DNA from: Escherichia phage vB_EcoM_SCS4
Sequence record: ON506924
Direction: 5' to 3' (one strand)
DNA length: 64,000 nucleotides
Shown here: in pieces, positions 6,194-60,222 of the stretch
Layout: every line of letters starts with the position of its first letter
How positions within the stretch are numbered: position 1 is the stretch's first letter
Made by a program: the position numbers and the translations under genes
The notes under the pieces: generated by a model
The model's input: only the letters and a program-made list of their open reading frames with translations
What the model was told of the DNA's origin: nothing
The model's database searches: none

Positions 6194-6874
6194 TTATTTT
6201 AATGTTATGAAAGAAGAATTGCGTGTTTCACGAATTAGAACTGATCCGTCACGATTAATGTAGTAAATTAAGCTAAATAAAGTTTGGTGTGCCGACGCGT
6301 GTTCAAAACTAGTTGGGTGAGATTTCCAATCCGGAGTTTCAGCAATCCACTGGTAAATCCACCAAGGAACAGTGCAGAATCCTGGATTTTTTCCAATCAG
6401 CTGAAGATTCGGACTAAAGTTTTCCGGAAGAGTAAATACAGACGGCTTTTCAGATTCAATAATCTCAGCTACAGCCTGTTCGAATTTTTCTTCAACAAAA
6501 GGAGTATCTTCAATCAAAACATCGGTATTTTCAGGAATTTTATCCGTTTCTATGACTTCAATTTTAATGTCAGATTTAACCGGAGAATCAATCAGAAGTG
6601 CTGCTTCTGGATTGACTTCTTCATCGTCATATTTTAATCCCTCTGCAGCATCTGCAGCATCGATTAAGTCTTTAATAGATAACCCATCAGTCTCTGGCAT
6701 AGGTTCACTAGCGAGCTTCTGGAGGGCTTCTTCAATATCAATAACGATATTATCAAAAGATTTATTCTTTTTGACCTTTATACCAAACTGTTCAGCATAT
6801 TCAGCTAATTTAGCTTTAGCTTCTTTATTATCATCAAGAGCCTTCAACTCTGCAATATAATCTTTATCTATCAT
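6194..6874 (-). CDS. inh: Inh, inhibitor of prohead protease
   Basis: 226-aa acidic ORF between hoc and segE as in T4. Confidence 0.8.
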   Translation of the reverse strand: MIDKDYIAELKALDDNKEAKAKLAEYAEQFGIKVKKNKSFDNIVIDIEEALQKLASEPMPETDGLSIKDLIDAADAAEGLKYDDEEVNPEAALLIDSPVKSDIKIEVIETDKIPENTDVLIEDTPFVEEKFEQAVAEIIESEKPSVFTLPENFSPNLQLIGKNPGFCTVPWWIYQWIAETPDWKSHPTSFEHASAHQTLFSLIYYINRDGSVLIRETRNSSFITLK

Positions 6875-6887
6875 AATATTTCCTCAG

Positions 6888-6895
6888 TATAAATA
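6888..6895 (+). promoter_or_regulatory. TATAAATA late-promoter motif upstream of segE
   Basis: Exact TATAAATA 29 nt upstream of the segE ATG. Confidence 0.4.
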
Positions 6896-6923
6896 TAGAT
6901 ATATTTATTACTCGGAAAATAGT

Positions 6924-7541
6924 ATGTACCACTTTGTATATGAAACAACAAATCTAATAAATGGTAAAAAGTATATAGGAAAACACTCTACTGATGACTT
7001 GAATGATGGTTACCTTGGTTCCGGTAAGGCAATTCAGCAGGCTATAAAGAAGTATGGTGAAAACAATTTCTCTAGAACAATACTAAAAGAGTTTAAAACT
7101 TCCGAAGAAGCGTACATGTATGAAGAAGAAATTATAACTCCTGAAATAATAAAAAGCAAAAATTATTATAATATGAAACCTGGTGGAATTGGTGGAATTG
7201 TTATGACTACAGAGGTTATAGCAAAGATGAAAGAATCTTCCGCTAAGAGATTTGAAAACTCACCGGGCACGGTATTAGGTACAACTTGTTACACTAATGG
7301 AACTAAAAATATTTTTATTAAACCTGGAGAACTTGTTCCAGAAGGATTTGTAAAAGGGATGGTTCATCCTAATAGAAAGTCCAGAAAAGGATGTAAAGTC
7401 AAACCGACTACCACAGGAACTTTTTGGGTCAATAATGGCGCAATAAATAAATTAATACAACCAGACGGTATTATTCCCGACGGATTTATTAAAGGTCGTC
7501 TCATGAAAAGAGATTCTAAAGGCAAATTTAGTAAGGCATAA
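6924..7541 (+). CDS. segE: GIY-YIG homing endonuclease SegE-like
   Basis: 205-aa ORF, N-terminal YHFVYETTNLINGKKYIGKH...GYLGSG GIY-YIG motif; T4 segE position upstream of uvsW. Confidence 0.85.
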   Translation: MYHFVYETTNLINGKKYIGKHSTDDLNDGYLGSGKAIQQAIKKYGENNFSRTILKEFKTSEEAYMYEEEIITPEIIKSKNYYNMKPGGIGGIVMTTEVIAKMKESSAKRFENSPGTVLGTTCYTNGTKNIFIKPGELVPEGFVKGMVHPNRKSRKGCKVKPTTTGTFWVNNGAINKLIQPDGIIPDGFIKGRLMKRDSKGKFSKA

Positions 7542-7543
7542 TT

Positions 7544-9052
7544 ATGGACATTAAAGTACATTTTTATGATTTTAGTCACGTGAGAATTGATTGTGAAGAA
7601 AGTACATTTCATGAACTCCGAGATTTCTTTAGCTTTGAAGCTGATGGATATCGTTTTAATCCGAAGTACAGATATGGCCACTGGGATGGACGAATCCGTC
7701 TGTTAGATTATAATCGTCTTCTTCCATTCGGCTTAGTCGGGCAAATTAAAAAATTCTGTGATAACTTTGGCTATAAAGCCTGGATTGACCCGCAAATTAA
7801 CGAAAAAGAAGAATTATCAAGAAAAGATTTTGATGAATGGCTTTCTAAATTAGAAATCTATTCAGGAAATAAAAGAATTGAACCACACTGGTATCAAAAA
7901 GATGCAGTGTTCGAAGGATTAGTTAATCGTCGTAGAATTCTTAATCTTCCAACATCCGCTGGTAAATCATTAATTCAAGCTTTGCTTGCGCGATATTATT
8001 TGGAAAATTATGAAGGTAAAATTCTTATCATTGTTCCAACAACTGCCTTAACAACTCAGATGGCTGATGACTTCGTCGACTATCGTCTATTCAGTCATGC
8101 AATGATAAAGAAAATTGGTGGCGGAGCATCAAAAGATGATAAATATAAAAATGATGCACCAGTCGTTGTTGGTACATGGCAAACTGTAGTAAAACAACCG
8201 AAAGAATGGTTCTCACAATTTGGAATGATGATGAATGATGAATGCCATCTTGCTACAGGAAAAAGTATTTCATCTATCATATCAGGTTTAAATAACTGCA
8301 TGTTCAAATTCGGTTTGTCTGGTTCATTACGTGATGGCAAAGCCAATATCATGCAGTATGTTGGAATGTTTGGCGAAATATTTAAGCCAGTAACGACTTC
8401 TAAGTTAATGGAAGATGGACAAGTAACTGAGCTAAAAATTAATAGTATTTTTCTTCGCTATCCCGATGAGTTCACTACTAAATTAAAGGGAAAAACTTAC
8501 CAAGAAGAAATAAAAATTATTACTGGGCTCAGTAAAAGAAATAAATGGATCGCTAAATTAGCTATTAAGCTTGCGCAAAAAGATGAAAACGCTTTTGTCA
8601 TGTTTAAACATGTATCGCATGGTAAAGCTATTTTCGATTTAATTAAAAATGAATACGATAAAGTTTATTACGTATCAGGGGAAGTTGATACCGAAACACG
8701 CAATATAATGAAAACCTTAGCTGAAAATGGTAAAGGAATAATTATAGTAGCGAGTTATGGCGTATTTTCTACTGGTATTTCAGTTAAAAATCTGCATCAC
8801 GTTGTTTTAGCGCACGGTGTTAAATCAAAAATCATTGTATTACAAACAATCGGTCGTGTATTACGTAAGCATGGTTCTAAGACAATAGCAACAGTCTGGG
8901 ACCTCATAGATGATTGTGGTGTTAAGCCAAAATCTGCTAATACTAAAAAGAAATATGTTCATTTGAACTATCTTTTAAAACACGGCATTGATCGTATTCA
9001 GCGCTACGCAGATGAAAAATTTAATTACGTAATGAAAACAGTTAATTTATAA
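7544..9052 (+). CDS. uvsW: UvsW RNA-DNA and DNA-DNA helicase (SF2)
   Basis: 502-aa ORF with Walker A (PTSAGKS) and DExH-like (MMNDECH) motifs. Confidence 0.92.
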   Translation: MDIKVHFYDFSHVRIDCEESTFHELRDFFSFEADGYRFNPKYRYGHWDGRIRLLDYNRLLPFGLVGQIKKFCDNFGYKAWIDPQINEKEELSRKDFDEWLSKLEIYSGNKRIEPHWYQKDAVFEGLVNRRRILNLPTSAGKSLIQALLARYYLENYEGKILIIVPTTALTTQMADDFVDYRLFSHAMIKKIGGGASKDDKYKNDAPVVVGTWQTVVKQPKEWFSQFGMMMNDECHLATGKSISSIISGLNNCMFKFGLSGSLRDGKANIMQYVGMFGEIFKPVTTSKLMEDGQVTELKINSIFLRYPDEFTTKLKGKTYQEEIKIITGLSKRNKWIAKLAIKLAQKDENAFVMFKHVSHGKAIFDLIKNEYDKVYYVSGEVDTETRNIMKTLAENGKGIIIVASYGVFSTGISVKNLHHVVLAHGVKSKIIVLQTIGRVLRKHGSKTIATVWDLIDDCGVKPKSANTKKKYVHLNYLLKHGIDRIQRYADEKFNYVMKTVNL

Positions 9053-9077
9053 GGGCTTCNGCCCNTTNGANAAAAAG

Positions 9078-9308
9078 ATGTTACTAGAATTTAAACAATT
9101 TCTTTATGAAGCTTCTATTGATGAATTTATGGGTAAAATTGCCTCTTGTCAAACATTAGAAGGTTTAGAAGAACTTGAAGCTTATTATAAGAAAAGAGTC
9201 AAAGAAACTGAATTAAAAGATACTGATGACATCTCTGTGAGAGATGCTTTGGCAGGAAAAAGAGCTGAATTAGAAAATTCAGACGATGAAGTAGAAGAAA
9301 GCTTTTAA
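9078..9308 (+). CDS. uvsW.1: UvsW.1 small acidic protein
   Basis: 76-aa ORF immediately after uvsW, separated by a stop and a hairpin containing ambiguous bases. Confidence 0.75.
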   Translation: MLLEFKQFLYEASIDEFMGKIASCQTLEGLEELEAYYKKRVKETELKDTDDISVRDALAGKRAELENSDDEVEESF

Positions 9309-9363
9309 ATTAAAAAAGGCCCAACCAAAAAGGAAGGGCCAAAACTATAGACTAAAGGTCACA

Positions 9364-9531
9364 CTATAGCAAAAGTTGTGTTTCATTTAATTGTTCTTCC
9401 GAACTTTCTGAAACTGGTAGTTCTTTAATGTAATTATAGCAAGGCCCAGGATGTACAGGACCTTTGTCTGTTTCAACAACCAATGCAGAATCGATTGGAG
9501 TTTTACAGACAACACAAATCTTATCTGACAT
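9364..9531 (-). CDS. Small Cys-containing protein (T4 uvsY.-2 position), 55 aa
   Basis: ATG at 9529-9531, TAG at 9364-9366; MSDKICVVCKTPIDS...HPGPCY; below the ORF-track size cut-off, found by manual translation. Confidence 0.5.
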   Translation of the reverse strand: MSDKICVVCKTPIDSALVVETDKGPVHPGPCYNYIKELPVSESSEEQLNETQLLL

Positions 9532-17582: not shown

Positions 17583-17609
17583 GGGGACCTTTCNNTNCCC
17601 ATATTTTTA
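17583..17609 (+). terminator. Hairpin terminator after gene 54 (contains N)
   Basis: ggggacctttc..ccc stem followed by a T-run. Confidence 0.45.
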
Positions 17610-17928: not shown

Positions 17929-17958
17929 ACTATAACACAACATAAGGAACTTGTAAAC
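17929..17958 (-). promoter_or_regulatory. T4-type early promoter (GTTTACA -35, TATAGT -10)
   Basis: - strand reads GTTTACA, 17-nt spacer, TATAGT; near-identical copy at 31702-31731. Confidence 0.45.
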
Positions 17959-20018
17959 TACATCTTGAACTTTTTAGACATTCCGTTGATGTTAACCAAA
18001 GAAGCCAAGATTTGAGAAACTTCGTTTTCCTCTTCTTTTGATTCTTCTACAANGAATTGATTAAATCCAGCCATTGGACGAACTTCACCAGTTTCCATTA
18101 AATGGTCGCCATCATATACTGATTCTTCTAATTGTTCAGAAGGAGGAACGATTGTACCTTCGATTAGATACTTGTTATAAGCAGTTTCTTTCATAAAGTA
18201 CGTACTTACTTTATTAATCTTCAGTAAAATTCCACGCGGTAGAATAACTTCAGCTTCTGATGGAAATCCTGATAAATGACCTGGAACGATAACTTTGATT
18301 CGCTCAGCTCCTTTAATTACCATACCCACGCTAGTTTCAGCATCTTCATTGGCATATGTAGAATGACTACCCATATGCATTAAATCTTCTGCATCAACGG
18401 AACCTTCTCCTTCGCCAGAAAATACTGCGCCGGAATCATCTAGAGCCATATAGTTTTTACCATGCTCACCGAAGATATTTGGTTTAAGTGATGTCGATAC
18501 GAAGTTCTTGAAATAGAACATTTTATTTTCAATGTTATGACGCAAAGTTTTAAAGGTAACTTCTTGTCCACGGTAAAGTGTAGTTCCTGGAGGAAGAACT
18601 GATCCTTTGGCAAAGGCAGAATCTAACGTCTCGATGTGCTTAATAGCTCGTTCCATATATTCTTCACGGGTAGAATCTGGTTTACCCAAAAGGAACGAGT
18701 TCATTTCAACATATGAATCTGCACAATAATCTTCAATTACATCAGATTCAGCCTGAGTCAGTCCTTTTGGAGTTACTTCGGTGCTTGCGTATTCATATGC
18801 CTGAGCAGCAGATTCATTAATCAATTTATAAATGCCATTCATTACAAATTGAATAATAGCTGTCTTTTCATCTGACGTAGCTTTAGAACCTTTAACTAAA
18901 TCATTNATAATTTTCTTAATAACATCAAAGCTATTAGAAATATTAATGTCAGCAAGATCGCTTAAAATTTTATCAGTTTTATAATCAAAGAATTCTTTAT
19001 TCTTTAAATATTCTTGAGAACCTTGATATGTTATATCGCTCTGCAACTTGATAGATGGATCACGTAAACGTGCATGGGCTAATGCAATATGATTTCGGAA
19101 GCTTTCTAGTTCATAATCGTTAGATTTAAAACGAGAAGCACTTCTCATACCACCGATAGCTCCTTTGCTAAAGTTTGAACCAATCTGGATAACGCCAGAG
19201 TTCATCGGACCTTCTGCTTTATATACCGGAACTTTAGATTCAAACTCTTGATATTTCTTGGCAGCGAAGCTATCACCCTGAAGTGAAGCATCAACAGTAG
19301 AATATTGAGCTTGTGCTGCTAATCGACGACTAATTTTAGTTTTCTGAATAACAGCTTGATCAGTGCGCTTATCATTTTCTAAAGCAATAGAAGCAGCAAC
19401 AGCGACAGCTTTAGGAACAGCATTACCTGTTTTAACGTCTACATAAACATCACCAACCTTTGATTCAACTTTTGTGAATAACTCAGTTGAAATAGGAGGT
19501 ACACCTGGAATGTCTTCTAAATTGGCATTTTTACGGTAAACCATAATATATGCATACTTTTTATCGTAATCCCAGAGTTCCTTAAGAAGGACGTATCTGC
19601 CACCTGAACGACTACGGATAAGTCTATCAGCAATAACTTGAATTTGTCGAGCTTGGCCAGCAGTTTTAGACTTAAGAATACGAAGCATACAAGCATCAAT
19701 TTTATACTGACGCATTGTTTGCATTGCAACAGTAAAAACTGAATTGATATAATTAATTGGGCTTGGACCAAGACCTTTTAATTTAGCAATTGAACCTTTA
19801 GCAGTTAATGTAAAAGGAACAATATGCATCATTTTATCGCCCATCTTTAAATCGCGATTAGTATCACCTCCAGATGTATAGGTACATAAACGAAATCCTG
19901 GTTGTTCAATTGCATCATCAACGTGAACTGAAAAAATTTGTGGTATTTTCTTCTTTGGATTTAAGTTTGTAATCGGAAGAGTAGTATCTTCGTCAAATAA
20001 TTCTGTAATGAGTTCCAT
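17958..20018 (-). CDS. alt: Alt, virion-packaged ADP-ribosyltransferase
   Basis: Large ORF beginning MELITELFDEDTTLPITNLNPKKK as T4 Alt; start at the second Met. Confidence 0.88.
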   Translation of the reverse strand: MELITELFDEDTTLPITNLNPKKKIPQIFSVHVDDAIEQPGFRLCTYTSGGDTNRDLKMGDKMMHIVPFTLTAKGSIAKLKGLGPSPINYINSVFTVAMQTMRQYKIDACMLRILKSKTAGQARQIQVIADRLIRSRSGGRYVLLKELWDYDKKYAYIMVYRKNANLEDIPGVPPISTELFTKVESKVGDVYVDVKTGNAVPKAVAVAASIALENDKRTDQAVIQKTKISRRLAAQAQYSTVDASLQGDSFAAKKYQEFESKVPVYKAEGPMNSGVIQIGSNFSKGAIGGMRSASRFKSNDYELESFRNHIALAHARLRDPSIKLQSDITYQGSQEYLKNKEFFDYKTDKILSDLADINISNSFDVIKKIXNDLVKGSKATSDEKTAIIQFVMNGIYKLINESAAQAYEYASTEVTPKGLTQAESDVIEDYCADSYVEMNSFLLGKPDSTREEYMERAIKHIETLDSAFAKGSVLPPGTTLYRGQEVTFKTLRHNIENKMFYFKNFVSTSLKPNIFGEHGKNYMALDDSGAVFSGEGEGSVDAEDLMHMGSHSTYANEDAETSVGMVIKGAERIKVIVPGHLSGFPSEAEVILPRGILLKINKVSTYFMKETAYNKYLIEGTIVPPSEQLEESVYDGDHLMETGEVRPMAGFNQFXVEESKEEENEVSQILASLVNINGMSKKFKM

Positions 20019-20056
20019 CATATCCTNTCNAGTGTTTANTCTATTTATAAAATTAA

Positions 20057-20070: not shown

Positions 20071-20259
20071 TTAATAATCTATAGGTAAGAGAGTACGATA
20101 TATTTCAAACTTTGGACCTTTTTCATAAGCATCAAATGTTTCTGTGAATTTATTATAAGCGTATGCATCTACAAATTCGAGAATGACTTGTGATACAGAA
20201 GTAGAAACATCTCCACCTTCTTTTTGAGCAATGACAATTGTTTCTAAGTAAGCTTTCAT
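20071..20259 (-). CDS. Hypothetical protein (T4 alt.1 position)
   Basis: 62-aa ORF between the ligase and alt. Confidence 0.55.
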   Translation of the reverse strand: MKAYLETIVIAQKEGGDVSTSVSQVILEFVDAYAYNKFTETFDAYEKGPKFEIYRTLLPIDY

Positions 20260-21719
20260 AAACCAGTTACCTCATGAAAATCACCAAATACATCTTCGAA
20301 CGTATTAGCTTTAGTTTTATCTTCACGTAAACGAATCGCAATCGGAAGAAATAATTTAACGTAATCAGTGCGGCCATCAGATTTTAACCAACCGTTGCAT
20401 TCGCACTCTAGAATTTTTCCAATATAATAANTTTGGTTTTCCATAATGCGAGTACGGTCAAGCTCATGTGATTTTACGCCGGCTTTATCTTTTAAGCCTG
20501 AACCAGCATTTACTTTAATTTTTCCACACTCTGATTCAAGAATAAATCCACCTGCTTTAGTAGGGTCTTTACGGTGAGGATAAATTCCTACAATTTTTAA
20601 ATCAACATCAATTACTTCTTTAAATTTATAGAGATTTTTTGAACGAGCATTTTCCCATAATCCATCGATATTTTTGAGAATAATACCTTCAAGACCTTGG
20701 TCAATATACTTTTTGTAAATTACCTTAGCTTCATCTAGGTTATTTACTATCTGGTTTTCAATTAAAATTACTTTATCATAACCTGATGTCATTTGTTCTA
20801 GTTTAGAAAAACGTACATCATATTTTAAACGAAATGCTGGAAGACCGTATATTTCTACCAACGGAACATAATCCCAGACCTGAAACTTCATGCATTGAGC
20901 TTCTTTTTCTGAAATAGTTCCCTTTAAAGATTTATTAGCGATTCCATTAGAAGTAGTACGTGATTCAGCTACTTCAGCAAACTCTTTAGCTTTACTAATT
21001 TCAGGATAAGCATCAAAAAGAAAATCTAGGCCTTCTGGCTCCTTTTTAACTTGCTCATGGTATACCAATTCGCCATCAATTAACACACCTTCTGGATGAA
21101 TCTGGCGGGCTTCAGCGGTCATTTTGATTAACTCTTCCTTAAGAAGATCTAATCCTAGATATTCATTACCAGCTCGTGATAAAAGACGGACATCATCTAA
21201 TTCATCACCTCTAACTTCGGCAAAGCACCGAGCTCCATCAGCTTTTAACTGGGCAAAGGCTGGAAATTTGATATTCTTATTAATGCCTTTTTCATCATAA
21301 GAACTTGCAAGCATTTGAGGTTGTTCAGGAATTAAACCTGGCCAAACTTTGTTTGCAATAGATACTGAAGCACCACATTCAAGGTCTCGCATCATCACTC
21401 GACGCAAAACTTCAACATCATCTTTTTTACCATCGGTGATATATCCAGATAATTCCTCAATTGCCGCATTTCCGGTCAATTTCCGAGTAGCTAACGTGAA
21501 TTCAATGAAGTCAAGCATATCGGTAAGAGTCAACATTCCAAAACTCTGGGTAGCAATACCAGATTTAGGCCATTTCTTGATATAATACTGCAACCCACGA
21601 GAATAAGTCAGACGATATACTCGTTTAAGCAATTCATTATCTTTATTCTTTTCAAGAATTGCTTGCTTCTGCTTAGTTGAACCAATAGATGCTATTTCGT
21701 TCAGAATTTTAAGAATCAT
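20256..21719 (-). CDS. 30: ATP-dependent DNA ligase gp30
   Basis: 487-aa ORF (T4 ligase length) with adenylation motif region (KADGAR); one ambiguous codon. Confidence 0.93.
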   Translation of the reverse strand: MILKILNEIASIGSTKQKQAILEKNKDNELLKRVYRLTYSRGLQYYIKKWPKSGIATQSFGMLTLTDMLDFIEFTLATRKLTGNAAIEELSGYITDGKKDDVEVLRRVMMRDLECGASVSIANKVWPGLIPEQPQMLASSYDEKGINKNIKFPAFAQLKADGARCFAEVRGDELDDVRLLSRAGNEYLGLDLLKEELIKMTAEARQIHPEGVLIDGELVYHEQVKKEPEGLDFLFDAYPEISKAKEFAEVAESRTTSNGIANKSLKGTISEKEAQCMKFQVWDYVPLVEIYGLPAFRLKYDVRFSKLEQMTSGYDKVILIENQIVNNLDEAKVIYKKYIDQGLEGIILKNIDGLWENARSKNLYKFKEVIDVDLKIVGIYPHRKDPTKAGGFILESECGKIKVNAGSGLKDKAGVKSHELDRTRIMENQXYYIGKILECECNGWLKSDGRTDYVKLFLPIAIRLREDKTKANTFEDVFGDFHEVTGL

Positions 21720-21985
21720 TGTTCATCCTTTAGAGTTTGGTTTACAGCTCTATTATAAATCAATTCATCATTAAGCTCAGTCAAAGACCTATGGTACGTG
21801 GTTCTAACTTTATTTCCTTGCATCCAGTGTTTGACGTAAATGAAACCTTGCTCTACACATTTTTTAAAAATTCGTTCGTCTTTTTGAGCTCGGAATTCTG
21901 GATTGCATCTAAAAAATTGATTTACGTGACCGTAATCACGTGTAGTATTACCTTCATTTTCATAAATAGTGTGAACAACAAACAT
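21716..21985 (-). CDS. Hypothetical protein (30.1 position)
   Basis: 89-aa ORF, operon-coupled. Confidence 0.55.
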   Translation of the reverse strand: MFVVHTIYENEGNTTRDYGHVNQFFRCNPEFRAQKDERIFKKCVEQGFIYVKHWMQGNKVRTTYHRSLTELNDELIYNRAVNQTLKDEQ

Positions 21986-22839
21986 TAGAATGCTCCTTGG
22001 AAAATATTATCACCACTACCACTAGTAAGTCTATTAAAATACCCTGCATCACCAGGCTTAATATAACTCCATGTATGGAATGGATGCATCTGATGTGAGT
22101 GCGTATAATATGGATGATATGGATTATAAGGATTAAATCCAGGAGTTCTCCAGGTAGTGTTCCAACGAAAAGAATCATTTTTAATCATCTTTTCAATTAC
22201 ATCTTTTATAGCTTTTTCACTATCAAAACTTTCTTTATTTTCCTTTGGTGAAAAAAGCTTATTCTCTACATCGTTCCATGTATAAACTCGCTGAGCGGTT
22301 TTTGGAATACTGTCACGTTCCCCTCGAGCCATCCAATACACAGGAACACGTAATATTTCACTTGCATGATCGCAGTGGTGAGCGAGATCGTCAATATAAC
22401 AAATTACATTATATTTCTCTTTTGCCTTTTTGAACAACTCTTCTTTTGAAGAATCATGACCACACATCATTACTTCTGAGAAGGCACCAGGAAAAAGAGC
22501 ATTCAAATTAAATTGACGATTCAACAAAGCGTCAATAGAATCACCCAATGCTGTAACAGCTACAAAATTATAATCTTCTTTTAATTTGTTAATTACACAC
22601 AGAGCATCTTTATATGGAGACAAGTAACGAATAAAATCTGATCGATTGTATTTTTCAATTAACTTGACGCCAAGTTCTTCATCACAGTTAAAGAGTTTAC
22701 CAGGAGAAATAAATTTCTCATCTTGGATCATTTTTAAAATATGTTCTAACGGAAGATTATATTTCTGAGCAAAATAAGGAAGGCCTGATTGCCAGCTTAA
22801 ACATACTCCATCAATATCAGTTAAAATAGTAGGCTTCAT
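21985..22839 (-). CDS. HAD-superfamily phosphatase-like protein (30.2 position) with His/Tyr/Pro-rich C-terminal tail
   Basis: N-terminal ILTDIDGV (HAD motif I, DxDG); C-terminal PGFNPYNPYHPYYTHSHQMHPFHTW low-complexity segment. Confidence 0.65.
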   Translation of the reverse strand: MKPTILTDIDGVCLSWQSGLPYFAQKYNLPLEHILKMIQDEKFISPGKLFNCDEELGVKLIEKYNRSDFIRYLSPYKDALCVINKLKEDYNFVAVTALGDSIDALLNRQFNLNALFPGAFSEVMMCGHDSSKEELFKKAKEKYNVICYIDDLAHHCDHASEILRVPVYWMARGERDSIPKTAQRVYTWNDVENKLFSPKENKESFDSEKAIKDVIEKMIKNDSFRWNTTWRTPGFNPYNPYHPYYTHSHQMHPFHTWSYIKPGDAGYFNRLTSGSGDNIFQGAF

Positions 22840-23300
22840 AGAGAGTCTCTTAATAGGTTTAACACATCAATAAATTCAGCTTCGGTTAGTATTGTATCAT
22901 CTTTTGTTAGACCACTAGCCATGCTGTGCTTCAAAACTTTTCCTTTCGAGGCTTGTAATGCATCACGAAAGCCCTTGTTTTGGATCGCTGCTTCAAAATA
23001 TGCATTTGTGTATAATTCTTTCCACGCTGAGGAGTATCTTGAAAACGGAACTCCAAGCCAGAAGAGGGTCCCACGGTCCTGAGCTCTTGCATAAGACCTT
23101 CCAGCTTGTTGGGCGGCAAGCCCTGATAACCCAAATATACGACGTTGTTGTTCAACATTTTTCACCTTGCACCCTTGAAGGAATCCTTCTAGACCTCCAA
23201 ATTGAATACCATCCATAACGAAAGGCCATTGAGCGAAATTACTTAATGCACATGATGGCCACTTAAAATTGCTTCTAATCTCTAACTCAGACATTTTCAA
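22836..23300 (-). CDS. NADAR-domain (YbiA-like) protein (30.3 position)
   Basis: LSNFAQWPFVMDGIQFGGLEGFLQGCK resembles the NADAR signature FSNFAxWP..DG....EHYFQAxK. Confidence 0.6.
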   Translation of the reverse strand: MKMSELEIRSNFKWPSCALSNFAQWPFVMDGIQFGGLEGFLQGCKVKNVEQQRRIFGLSGLAAQQAGRSYARAQDRGTLFWLGVPFSRYSSAWKELYTNAYFEAAIQNKGFRDALQASKGKVLKHSMASGLTKDDTILTEAEFIDVLNLLRDSL

Positions 23301-23493
23301 TGCTTATAATTTCAACATCAGCCCAATGACCATAGCAAGGAAGACGAAATTCAACTGGCCAGTTAGGGTCCTTTTCTAATATAATAGACTTAACTTGTGG
23401 TTCTTCATGTTCATCAGTATATGGATTTTTATCTGTTACTTTATATGTGACCTTAATGTACTGAATTCCAAAAATCTTATTAATTATATTCAT
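23287..23493 (-). CDS. Hypothetical protein (30.x)
   Basis: 68-aa ORF, overlapping coupling. Confidence 0.5.
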   Translation of the reverse strand: MNIINKIFGIQYIKVTYKVTDKNPYTDEHEEPQVKSIILEKDPNWPVEFRLPCYGHWADVEIISIENV

Positions 23494-23687
23494 ACTAATT
23501 CCTTTAATCCGTAAATAGGAGATAATTCATCACCCATACGAAGGTCTTCATTTCCATCTACCCAGGAAACAATATAAGCCTCTTTTATTTGAATACCACT
23601 CCATTTAAATGGAGGTAGAACCTTAGAAATTAATCCAGGTATACCAACTCCCTTTAATTCAACAGTTTGACCTAAAAAGAATTTCAT
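23490..23687 (-). CDS. Hypothetical protein (30.x)
   Basis: 65-aa ORF. Confidence 0.5.
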   Translation of the reverse strand: MKFFLGQTVELKGVGIPGLISKVLPPFKWSGIQIKEAYIVSWVDGNEDLRMGDELSPIYGLKELV

Positions 23688-23974
23688 TAGAACCTCATCT
23701 GAAAACCGTGCGATTTAACATTACCGCCGCCAATATCAGAAATGTTAATTTCGCGCGCAATTGAAGGGTCAATGTCAATTTCACGATTGAGTTTAGTGAT
23801 AGCTAAAGTATCGCGCCCATTTACAGTACGGAACTCTAAAGGACAAACCACATCAACGTAGTTTTTAATCGATTCACTGGTAGGCTGCAAATGAGCAGGA
23901 AGGTCTTTGGGCGCCTTTGAGAAAACCACTTCACAGAAATTTTTACGGGTATCAAAATAAGTAGTCATAAACAT
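23687..23974 (-). CDS. Hypothetical protein (30.x)
   Basis: 95-aa ORF. Confidence 0.55.
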   Translation of the reverse strand: MFMTTYFDTRKNFCEVVFSKAPKDLPAHLQPTSESIKNYVDVVCPLEFRTVNGRDTLAITKLNREIDIDPSIAREINISDIGGGNVKSHGFQMRF

Positions 23975-24015
23975 GGTATTTTCCTCAGTAAGGGGCCGAA
24001 GCCCCTCATTTTATT

Positions 24016-24381
24016 TTAAATATCAAATTCATTAAGAACTACATCAAAGATTGCTTCGAGATGTTCAGGTTTAGCTCTGTTACTCAGAATATGACGAATC
24101 CAAGTTTTAACCAAAAGCTTGCGATTAGCACCATTCCAACAAGGATGAGTCCCTAAATCGCGTTGACGAAAATCATCATCCAGAGCGATTTTAAAGTTGG
24201 AACCTTCCATTGTGATTGAAACCGTGATGCCATTTTCAAATCGCATATAAACGTAATTAGGAGTCATATACTGTTCAATTTCGCATACTGATCCATTTTG
24301 ATGTTTCCAAAGGCAAATAGTATCAATAGAACCTGCAATACCATTAGAAACATATTTACGTTCAAAGTTGATGTAGTTCAT
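24016..24381 (-). CDS. Hypothetical protein (30.x)
   Basis: 121-aa ORF preceded by an early-promoter-like element. Confidence 0.55.
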   Translation of the reverse strand: MNYINFERKYVSNGIAGSIDTICLWKHQNGSVCEIEQYMTPNYVYMRFENGITVSITMEGSNFKIALDDDFRQRDLGTHPCWNGANRKLLVKTWIRHILSNRAKPEHLEAIFDVVLNEFDI

Positions 24382-24418
24382 TTTTATTCTCCGTGATGTT
24401 TAATTGCGGTACAGGTAT

Positions 24419-24447
24419 ATAATATCATATCCTGTACCAAAGTAAAC
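24419..24447 (-). promoter_or_regulatory. T4-type early promoter (GTTTAC -35, TATTAT -10) flanked by an inverted repeat
   Basis: - strand GTTTAC, 17-nt spacer, TATTAT; ggtacagg/cctgtacc palindrome around the -10. Confidence 0.4.
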
Positions 24448-24449
24448 AA

Positions 24450-24782
24450 TTATTTTACTACTTTCCAATGCTTCATGTCAAGTTTACCAACTTTTTTCAT
24501 CTTCTCAATTAAGCGTTCGGCACGTTGGCGAGCTGTAACATAATACCATTCACCTAATTCATTTTGTTCAATTTTTCCAACGATTACTGTATTCAATTCA
24601 TAAATCCAACCGGTAAAGAAATTATGAACTTGAATTGTAAAGGTGAAATCTGTTCCCATACCTTCTGTTGTTTCTACTTCAATAATATCACCTTCAACTG
24701 CCATTAAGAACCACATAGTTTCATTATATTTACCATTGAAGCATTTAGTTTTAACTGCAGCGTTCAGATTAATCGTTTTCAT
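24450..24782 (-). CDS. Hypothetical protein (30.x)
   Basis: 110-aa ORF. Confidence 0.55.
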   Translation of the reverse strand: MKTINLNAAVKTKCFNGKYNETMWFLMAVEGDIIEVETTEGMGTDFTFTIQVHNFFTGWIYELNTVIVGKIEQNELGEWYYVTARQRAERLIEKMKKVGKLDMKHWKVVK

Positions 24783-24859
24783 TTTATTCTCCTTTGTTTG
24801 TGTAAGATAATACTATCACAAAGGAACCATATTGTAAACAACTTTGTGCAATCTTTGGA

Positions 24860-24887
24860 AAATAAAAAAGGACTCCCGAAGGAGTCC
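24860..24887 (-). terminator. Rho-independent terminator (ggactcc-cgaa-ggagtcc plus T-run on the - strand)
   Basis: 7-bp GC-rich stem with GAA-containing loop followed by a U-run in the - strand transcript. Confidence 0.55.
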
Positions 24888-24892
24888 TCAAC

Positions 24893-25111
24893 TTATGCTT
24901 TCTGCTTACCAAAACGAGAAGCATCATCTCGAAGAACCGCACGTGCTCGGCGCATGATCTTCTCAACAGTTTGATTGATACGAGAGTTCGACCCACGCTT
25001 GTAGCCAGCGCGTTTAGAATCACCAACTTTCTTTTCAACTGCTTTCTTTGCTTTAACTTGTTTTGCCATTATAAATTCTCTTTTAAATGAAAATGCAGGA
25101 CTTATTGGCAT
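24893..25111 (-). CDS. Small highly basic protein (30.x); probable start at internal Met (MAKQVKAKKA...)
   Basis: Lys/Arg-rich 58-72 aa ORF. Confidence 0.45.
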   Translation of the reverse strand: MPISPAFSFKREFIMAKQVKAKKAVEKKVGDSKRAGYKRGSNSRINQTVEKIMRRARAVLRDDASRFGKQKA

Positions 25112-25290
25112 TGCCTGCGCAAGCCCTCAAGGGGGTACTTAGGTTTTGAATATTTACCGACAGGATAACCATAAACCTCGTCATCATACCACCAAGACTT
25201 ACACAGATAACACTTTTCTGACGCATGATAGTAACATTCAAGAGGTACACCGTAAAACTGCCGGGGTCTTAAAACTATAATGATTCGCAA
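25102..25290 (-). CDS. Small Cys/Tyr-rich protein (30.x)
   Basis: 62-aa ORF with CYYHASEKCYLC motif. Confidence 0.45.
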   Translation of the reverse strand: MRIIIVLRPRQFYGVPLECYYHASEKCYLCKSWWYDDEVYGYPVGKYSKPKYPLEGLRRQCQ

Positions 25291-25357
25291 ATCATTAATC
25301 AGACAGTTCGACGGCTCCTCGATTTAGCTCACACTAAGGCAGTGAATCTCCAATAAA

Positions 25358-25606
25358 TTACTTCAATGTTACCACAAAGTGACGAACTGCTTTTCGTGCA
25401 GCAGAAGCCAGAGGCTTAGCATATTTAAGTTCATCTTTTTCCTGAAGCTCAGCAGCTAATGCAGTTTGAGCAGGATTCAGATGTTTGAAATAACGCAGGA
25501 TTTCAAGAGCTTCGGCTTCAACATCAATAGATGCGCCATAGTTTTCGTGACCATTATTCCATGCGTTTCGTTGCAGTTCAAGAGCGTGTTGTAATTGTTT
25601 AATCAT
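25358..25606 (-). CDS. rIII: RIII lysis-inhibition accessory protein
   Basis: 82-aa ORF (T4 RIII length), located between the 30.x block and gene 31. Confidence 0.85.
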   Translation of the reverse strand: MIKQLQHALELQRNAWNNGHENYGASIDVEAEALEILRYFKHLNPAQTALAAELQEKDELKYAKPLASAARKAVRHFVVTLK

Positions 25607-25753
25607 TTAAAAATTCTCGTTAGAGATTAAAACTCGGTAGTCACGTTCTTCTGAATTTCATCTTCTTTCGACAGATCTCTCAGTTGTAGACTACCACGTA
25701 GAATTGTTCGGTTAACATATTATTCCGACACCCAATTCATATTATTATTTATA

Positions 25754-26089
25754 TCACTTATAAAGACATGGAATAGCTTTATAGTGGCAAGTGACGAATT
25801 TTTGTTTAATTTCTTTTGGCTGCTTAAGACCCAGAGCTACAAAAGGATGCGGAACGTTTCGAATTTGACCAACTGGAAGAGAAGTCAAATCACCAACTTC
25901 GCAGAAACCTTCAGGAACATCAGGACCAACAGAGTGAACTACACACAGTTCAGGAACTTCACCTTGAACACGTTTACCGATAATAAGTCCTGATTCTGTA
26001 ACTTCTTCATCACCGGCTTGTGCAGGTTCAGAAACTAAAATAACATATTCACCGACAGCACGAATTGGTAGCTGTTGTACTTCAGACAT
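25754..26089 (-). CDS. 31: Co-chaperonin gp31 (GroES analogue)
   Basis: 111-aa ORF, T4 gp31 length and sequence. Confidence 0.92.
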
Positions 26090-26119
26090 CGTTTTTCCTT
26101 TTTGTTAACAGATGAATTA

Positions 26120-26144
26120 ATAATAACAAATAATTCTTAAAGCA
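26120..26144 (-). promoter_or_regulatory. Candidate MotA-dependent middle promoter for gene 31
   Basis: - strand ATGCTTTAA (MotA-box-like TGCTTtA) followed 12 nt later by TATTAT. Confidence 0.35.
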
Positions 26145-26145
26145 T

Positions 26146-26454
26146 TTATTTACCAATAAATTGGAGTAAATGCTCAACTTTCATACCATTAACGGAAATC
26201 AATTTGTCAATAGAAAAACCTCGCCATGCACCAAGCTCGACATCAAACACTGGAATCATGTCAGTAGATTCTTTCCGAGTAGATTCAGTCAATTTACCAG
26301 TTTGCATGGTTGGCATAAAGTCTGCATCACGAGTACCTTTCATAGTACGAATAGTACCATCAGACTTTTCAAAAACTACGTTTGAAACACCCATGGACAA
26401 TTTAGTTTTCAAAATTTCGCGAATTGCTACTTTCTGCTCAGTTGTCAGTTTCAT
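26146..26454 (-). CDS. Hypothetical protein (31.1 position)
   Basis: 102-aa ORF. Confidence 0.6.
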   Translation of the reverse strand: MKLTTEQKVAIREILKTKLSMGVSNVVFEKSDGTIRTMKGTRDADFMPTMQTGKLTESTRKESTDMIPVFDVELGAWRGFSIDKLISVNGMKVEHLLQFIGK

Positions 26455-26691
26455 TTATTTACCTATCACAGTTTTAATATGAGTTGTTCCACGTTCTTTA
26501 AGGGTGGAAAGTAATTTTTGGCATTTTTCTAAATCAGATTTCCAACTATATGGTCTATCAATACTAGTCCAATCAGTTTTATAATACTGTTTCCATTTAG
26601 AGAAAAAATATTTCTTATACTCTACAGCAAATGAGATGTTCTCGTTAGAATAAGAACTAATTGCTGTAAGCTTTACCAAACGAAATTTCAT
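26455..26691 (-). CDS. Hypothetical protein (31.2 position)
   Basis: 78-aa ORF. Confidence 0.55.
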   Translation of the reverse strand: MKFRLVKLTAISSYSNENISFAVEYKKYFFSKWKQYYKTDWTSIDRPYSWKSDLEKCQKLLSTLKERGTTHIKTVIGK

Positions 26692-60134: not shown

Positions 60135-60141
60135 NTTTTCC

Positions 60142-60222
60142 TCACTNGTGTCCGAAGNCGCCNTTGNTTTTAANNTTNTTACGATANAANTNNNTCANNN
60201 NNTNNTTGTGGAANTTACTCAT
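60142..60222 (-). CDS. stp: Stp peptide (26 aa), activator of the host anticodon nuclease system
   Basis: Translation MSNFHN...FYRNNLKTKGVFGHQ; ATG overlaps the ndd stop; lies in an N-dense stretch so several residues are undetermined. Confidence 0.65.
   Translation of the reverse strand: MSXFHXXXXXXXYRXXXKXXGXFGHX

Follow-up and report, generated by a model that had tools for sequence, protein, structure and literature searches.

Within the 64,000 nucleotides of Escherichia phage vB_EcoM_SCS4 analysed here (record ON506924, hereafter the window), a minus-strand ORF at 22836..23300 raises the question of whether this phage encodes a NADAR protein and what such a protein would do during infection. 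The original prediction, read from the sequence alone, proposed a NADAR-like (YbiA-family) protein with a counter-defence role against DarT-type toxins. Both the observation and its interpretation are essentially correct, and the finding is not new, as the experiments it suggested are already published. The window carries, intact, the T4-type gene 30.3, renamed adfN, whose function is already published. It very probably encodes a bare NADAR core of 152 residues that counters DarTG1 by removing ADP-ribose from DNA.

The window is a Tequatrovirus (T4-like) genome. Between 22000 and 24500 its DNA shares 97.9% identity with Escherichia phage ECML-134, and the same region has matches in 689 phage records, nearly all Tequatrovirus and relatives. 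Gene order follows T4, with baseplate genes, alt, gene 30, 30.1, 30.2, 30.3, 30.4, 30.5, 30.6, 30.7, 30.8, rIII and 31. The DNA ligase gene 30 lies at 20256..21719, 30.1 corresponds to DUF3045, 30.7 to PF06919 and 30.8 to PF06019. The direct neighbours of adfN are 30.2 (phrog_420) and 30.4 (phrog_2042), arranged as in T4.

Some features of the wider region were also recorded. A single alt copy lies upstream of the ligase in the window, two tandem paralogues are found in the very similar teqhad genome (L001 853..5007), and T4 carries alt plus the remnants alt.-1 and alt.-2. Across the window there are 67 non-ACGT characters (e.g. 9060-9071, 17594-17597, 20027-20039 and 60135-60214), so that DNA ligase, Alt, gp29 and other proteins are translated with X residues. 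None of the 67 falls within adfN.

In terms of identity, the protein matches the Pfam family PF08010, “Bacteriophage protein GP30.3”, over the full model of 138 positions (E 1.5e-69), with 232.6 bits where the curated cut-off is 36, and also matches phrog_652. When compared to T4 gp30.3 (NP_049816), 149 of 152 residues are identical (98%). The three differences are K11, S89 and M125, where T4 has R, P and I, with a few synonymous changes in the DNA. All three fall at variable or consensus-matching columns of the 54-member family alignment, and no functional difference from T4 AdfN is expected from them.

The ORF listing of the window counts 154 aa from a TTG at 23300. Translation almost certainly begins at the ATG at 23294, since the T4 and teqhad annotations and the cloning primers of PMC11257639 all use it. 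This gives a minus-strand CDS at 22836..23294 of 152 codons and a TGA stop, which corresponds to the 459 nt gene annotated in T4 (NP_049816) and in teqhad and encodes a single-domain NADAR-superfamily DNA ADP-ribosylglycohydrolase. The published T4 adfN primers, ATGTCTGAGTTAGAGATTAGAAGCAAT... and ...TCATAGAGAGTCTCTTAATAGGTTTAACAC, match both ends of the window gene exactly (PMC11257639).

Reading the sequence directly, the stop of 30.4 and the start of adfN overlap in ATGTCTGA (23287..23294, minus strand), the same 8-nt overlap annotated in T4. At the other end, the adfN stop and the start of gene 30.2 share an ATGA (22836..22839, minus strand), also present in T4 and teqhad. There is no strong Shine-Dalgarno sequence upstream of the adfN start, and the overlap with 30.4 fits translational coupling. 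A promoter and terminator scan of 21500..26500 returned counts no higher than shuffled controls and gave nothing firm on adfN transcription. Two individual sites from this region, both on the minus strand, are recorded here as observations. One, at 24868..24889 just upstream of 30.8, is a strong hairpin resembling a terminator, with a stem of 9 bp and a T-run after it. The other is a promoter-like site, TTGACA-18-TAAAAT, matching 11/12 positions near consensus at 24452..24481, at the end of 30.8 and ahead of 30.7.

Another frame inside adfN holds a 75-aa ORF (22931..23158, minus strand), the counterpart of the T4-annotated gene 30.3'. The window, T4, teqhad and PSD2002 all keep this frame open, RB69 has a stop codon in it, and Acj61 lacks it. 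Since only close T-evens keep it open, we rejected the idea of a conserved overlapping gene; the open frame is apparently restricted to this lineage.

As for the distribution of the family, tblastn located the gene in 1510 phage records. The main hosts, all for Straboviridae, are Escherichia, Klebsiella, Shigella, Aeromonas, Acinetobacter and Vibrio. Outside Straboviridae there were a few matches: a Brevundimonas siphophage, a Rhizobium phage of the Pootjesviridae and a Ralstonia phage of the Ackermannviridae. Protein databases contributed 107 relatives, all with PF08010, and together these numbers place the ORF far from a chance reading frame. Several relatives in JGI records are named “YbiA (DUF1768 family)”, and the relative P0084 matches both Pfam models. 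No ADP-ribosyltransferase toxin was found beside the metagenomic relatives P0043 and P0106, whose contexts resemble large phage genomes. Such toxin-free contexts fit the description of an “orphan antitoxin”.

We then consider NADAR membership itself. The peptide on which the original prediction was based is present exactly, as LSNFAQWPFVMDGIQFGGLEGFLQGCK (residues 17-43, codons checked at 23166..23246 on the minus strand), and its likeness to the NADAR signature is real. It aligns to YbiA F29-K55, where the YbiA sequence reads FSNFAAWPIKVDGKTWPTSEHYFQAQK. Single-sequence searches with the window protein returned no NADAR match in Pfam (PF08719), NCBIfam, PDB sequences or PADLOC. These negatives were not counted against the assignment, because the link appears only through family members, profiles or structure, and for the same reason a naive Pfam run would misfire as a test of it. 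With the family as query the picture is different. PF08719 is matched by 24/54 family members (best E 1.5e-7), a search with the family profile retrieves E. coli YbiA (2b3w) over the motif (E 0.0074), and hhalign of the family against K-12 YbiA gives a probability of 94% (E 1.5e-7, YbiA residues 27-124). A motif-level reading of the raw sequence had therefore recovered a relationship that the single-sequence Pfam scan misses.

The structure agrees. An AlphaFold2 model built with the family alignment as input has a pLDDT of 93.2 and a pTM of 0.89, and the top three Foldseek matches in the PDB (2b3w, 8bau and 8bat) are exactly the three solved NADARs. In the signature stretch, L17, S18, N19, F20, F25, E36, G37, F38, Q40 and K43 are invariant in the 54 members. 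They include the catalytic Glu and Lys of the E-x-x-(F/Y)-Q-x-x-K motif, both within LSNFAQWPFVMDGIQFGGLEGFLQGCK and encoded on the minus strand. E36 (23187..23189) aligns with YbiA E48 and K43 (23166..23168) with YbiA K55.

A further position places the protein within the superfamily. H123 is also invariant in the 54 relatives. It closes the last beta-strand (VLKH; model strand 120-123; codon 22926..22928, minus strand), and hhalign pairs VLK with YbiA KLV, which puts H123 on the next YbiA Glu. The residue in this last strand is known to split the superfamily, being Glu in YbiA, Asp in the NADARs linked to DarT1 and His in phage gp30.3 (PMC11125620, PMC12945103). The protein is a member of the NADAR superfamily, in the phage gp30.3 branch that His123 marks. 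Profile, fold and catalytic residues bear out the name “NADAR-like”, but the YbiA family in the strict sense was rejected, as His123 replaces Glu here and in all 54 relatives. The DarG1/BC4488 family was rejected as well, on the basis of His rather than Asp, a core of only 152 aa, the lack of an adjacent ADP-ribosyltransferase and the lack of a PADLOC DarG match.

A separate observation came from PADLOC, where the candidate defence component PDC-M42C is weakly matched by 35/54 members of the gp30.3 family (best E 3.4e-5) and not by the window protein. It is possible that PDC-M42C is itself of NADAR type and belongs to a bacterial system not yet characterised.

Everything on gene identity, NADAR fold, intact catalytic residues and full length comes from the present analysis. 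The enzymatic activity, guanine specificity and anti-DarTG1 phenotype are taken from published work on the 98%-identical T4 protein. In that literature, T4 gp30.3 is AdfN, a guanine-specific DNA ADP-ribosylglycohydrolase both necessary and sufficient against DarTG1 (Nat Commun 2025; Toxins 2024 and 2026; HIDEN-SEQ preprint). The counter-defence role proposed for the ORF has in this way been shown experimentally for the T4 orthologue (PMC11257639, PMC11825919, PMC11125620).

Johannesman, Awasthi, Carlson and LeRoux (bioRxiv 2024, PMC11257639; Nat Commun 2025;16:1598, PMC11825919) crossed resistant T-evens with the sensitive RB69, mapped DarTG1 resistance to 30.3 and renamed the gene adfN. In the same two reports, deletion of adfN in T4 and T2 lowered plaquing by ~4 logs on DarTG1 hosts, ectopic AdfN rescued RB69, AdfN did not bind DarT1, and purified AdfN took ADP-ribose off DarT1-modified DNA. 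The rescue of RB69 was impaired by E36A, K43A and C-terminal truncation of T4 AdfN (PMC11825919). An independent group found in vitro that T4 gp30.3 de-ADP-ribosylates guanine and not thymine (PMC11125620). Later work again found it active on G-ADPr, with the phage NADAR absent from the listed families that remove C-ADPr (PMC12945103). Finally, a transposon screen found insertions in 30.3/adfN depleted on DarTG1 hosts only (bioRxiv 10.1101/2025.11.20.689424), and the gene is dispensable on E. coli K-12 and essential only with DarTG1 (PMC11257639; bioRxiv 10.1101/2025.11.20.689424).

Put together, these data make the following mechanism very probable. In a DarTG1 host infected by a T-even phage, DarT1 places ADP-ribose on guanines of the phage DNA and blocks its replication. 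AdfN, produced from the 30.x transcription unit, cleaves the bond between base and ribose, freeing the ADP-ribose, leaving the guanine unmodified again and allowing replication to go on. The protein acts as an “orphan antitoxin”, mending the DNA without binding DarT1. The ADP-ribose is held and activated by Glu36 and Lys43, and His123 stands in for the acidic residue of other NADAR branches. Full activity requires the C-terminal helix, EAEFIDVLNLLRDSL. It covers residues 138-152 (22839..22883, minus strand; model helix 138-151) and is intact here. Nothing else in the window speaks against this mechanism. By every sequence criterion the window copy is an active allele, and we infer that, with its K11, S89 and M125, it behaves like T4 AdfN.

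The picture of a free-standing repair enzyme is incomplete, because T4 AdfN fails to detoxify DarT1 in uninfected E. coli and rescues non-T-even phages only weakly (PMC11825919). This dependence on T-even infection is not due to phage DNA modifications, and the same authors suggest an additional T-even factor (PMC11825919). It is conceivable, though we consider it improbable, that the helper is encoded in the same coupled block, with gp30.2 as one candidate. The gp30.2 gene (21985..22839, minus strand; 284 aa, phrog_420, no Pfam match) has the start that overlaps the adfN stop in the ATGA. It is found in 1444 records, compared to 1510 for gp30.3, with a near-equal distribution in Straboviridae. 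This co-occurrence can be explained by shared ancestry alone. No 30.2-like gene was detected within 4 kb on either side of the gp30.3 homologues in the Brevundimonas, Rhizobium and Ralstonia phages. As the pairing is not kept outside Straboviridae, gp30.2 stays a low-probability lead. An established gp30.2-gp30.3 module was likewise rejected, the two genes being adjacent in Straboviridae and the pairing absent from these three phages.

As for gp30.2 itself, its N-terminus carries a HAD-superfamily motif I, MKPTILTDIDGV (ILTDIDGV, with the “DIDG” motif). Its similarity to the 5'(3')-deoxyribonucleotidase 2jao is weak (E 1.5), and in some records it is named a nucleotidase or HAD hydrolase. Its C-terminal tail (about aa 235-284) is rich in His, Tyr and Pro and is uncovered in diverged homologues.

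The original prediction also drew attention to Alt, a few kb away, and this is accurate. The alt gene lies at 17958..20021 on the minus strand (687 aa; PF03496, E 4.9e-20), 2.8 kb from the adfN gene end, with DNA ligase (gene 30), 30.1 and 30.2 between. No ADP-ribosyltransferase gene directly adjoins adfN in the window; Alt is four genes off and belongs to the exoenzyme-type ART family. The hinted connection between the two is not supported. Alt is an arginine-specific protein ADP-ribosyltransferase, whereas the target of AdfN is ADP-ribosylated guanine in DNA. ADP-ribosylated arginine in proteins is not a known NADAR substrate. The proximity comes from conserved Straboviridae gene order, and alt-30-30.2-30.3 is also the order in T4, RB69 and Acinetobacter phage Acj61. 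A functional link between Alt and adfN was rejected given the differing substrates, the conserved synteny and the absence of an adfN phenotype without DarTG1.

A related possibility is that AdfN clears stray ADP-ribose left on nucleic acids by Alt, ModA and ModB. The recurrence of this neighbourhood in T4, RB69 and Acj61, with Alt 2.8 kb off in the window, would be in its favour, as would the ability of NADARs to clear G-ADPr from RNA as well (PMC12945103). We regard it as very unlikely, since Alt modifies protein arginine, adfN is needed only when DarTG1 is present, and no annotated alt was found within 4 kb on either side of the gp30.3-family genes in the Brevundimonas, Rhizobium and Ralstonia phages.

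Still less probable is a metabolic role, with the protein acting like YbiA as an N-glycosidase on reactive riboflavin-pathway intermediates and not in DNA repair. Fold and N-terminal motif are indeed common to YbiA, whose RefSeq name in E. coli is “N-glycosidase YbiA”. However, the Glu that defines that family is His in this protein and throughout its 54 relatives, riboflavin housekeeping is of no evident use to a lytic phage, and for the T4 orthologue there is a clear phenotype at the DNA level as well as activity in vitro on DNA carrying ADP-ribose.

Equally remote is a decayed, non-functional allele, for which RB69 (137 aa) and the fusions or frame switches P0014, P0015, P0017, P0051 and P0102 offer precedents, but the window gene is full length with zero ambiguous bases, keeps the invariant residues and the C-terminal helix, and is 98% identical to the active T4 protein.

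The public data do hold a number of chimeric or truncated gp30.3 relatives (P0014, P0015, P0017, P0051, P0102, P0007, P0013 and P0016). Three chimeras join an N-terminus from gp30.7, gp30.8 or gp30.4 to the C-terminal half of gp30.3, and others switch between the 30.3 and 30.3' frames. E36 and K43 are missing in chimeras and N-terminally truncated forms; P0013 and P0014 keep both residues, without H123 and the C-terminal helix. These forms could be natural deletion alleles of the hyperplastic region that give DarTG1 sensitivity like that of RB69, or errors of assembly or gene calling.

In practical terms, an intact adfN predicts that this phage would plaque on E. coli carrying DarTG1, a prediction of use in choosing therapeutic T-even phages. 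Truncated or chimeric alleles would predict sensitivity. For the window itself the gene matters little: its copy is ordinary and intact, and its counter-defence function is already characterised. The value is mostly in annotation, as nearly all of the >1500 records with the gene still say “hypothetical protein” and some of its neighbours are mislabelled as baseplate genes. In teqhad (MN895434.1, L001) 6705..9364 and related records, several 30.x genes are named “putative baseplate hub” or “baseplate tail tube cap”. These baseplate labels on the small early genes 30.1, 30.4 and 30.7 appear to be propagated mis-annotations.

Among known systems, T4 AdfN is the closest, and the window protein shares its length (152 aa), its neighbours, the overlapping starts and stops, E36, K43, H123 and the C-terminal helix. 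RB69 gp30.3 (NP_861905) is a natural loss-of-function allele at the same locus, 96% identical to the window protein over residues 1-137. In RB69 an insertion of one base shifts the frame, so that the 15 residues that make up the C-terminal helix are lost, whereas the window allele is intact. We checked this published claim directly in the sequence; RB69 gp30.3 stops at residue 137, and its +1 frame still reads as the missing helix.

Further away is DarG1 of Geobacter/Trichlorobacter lovleyi (PDB 8bat), a NADAR antitoxin associated with DarT1, which has an N-terminal extension and 219 aa, 133 of them aligned. It has Asp at the position of the AdfN His, and its gene lies next to that of its toxin. 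AdfN, in contrast, is an orphan, has only the core and gives uninfected cells no protection against DarT1. E. coli YbiA (PDB 2b3w) is ~20% identical to the window protein and has Glu in place of His in the last strand. Its gene belongs to the host, where it lies in the rhlE-ybiA-dinG-ybiB region, and the protein is reported to act as an N-glycosidase in metabolism.

[quoted passage not shown] Like the T4 type they are orphan, anti-DarTG1 and guanine-specific, but they belong to other NADAR branches and were acquired independently. Both also neutralise DarT1 when no phage has infected the cell, whereas an enzyme of the T4 type works fully during T-even infection only.
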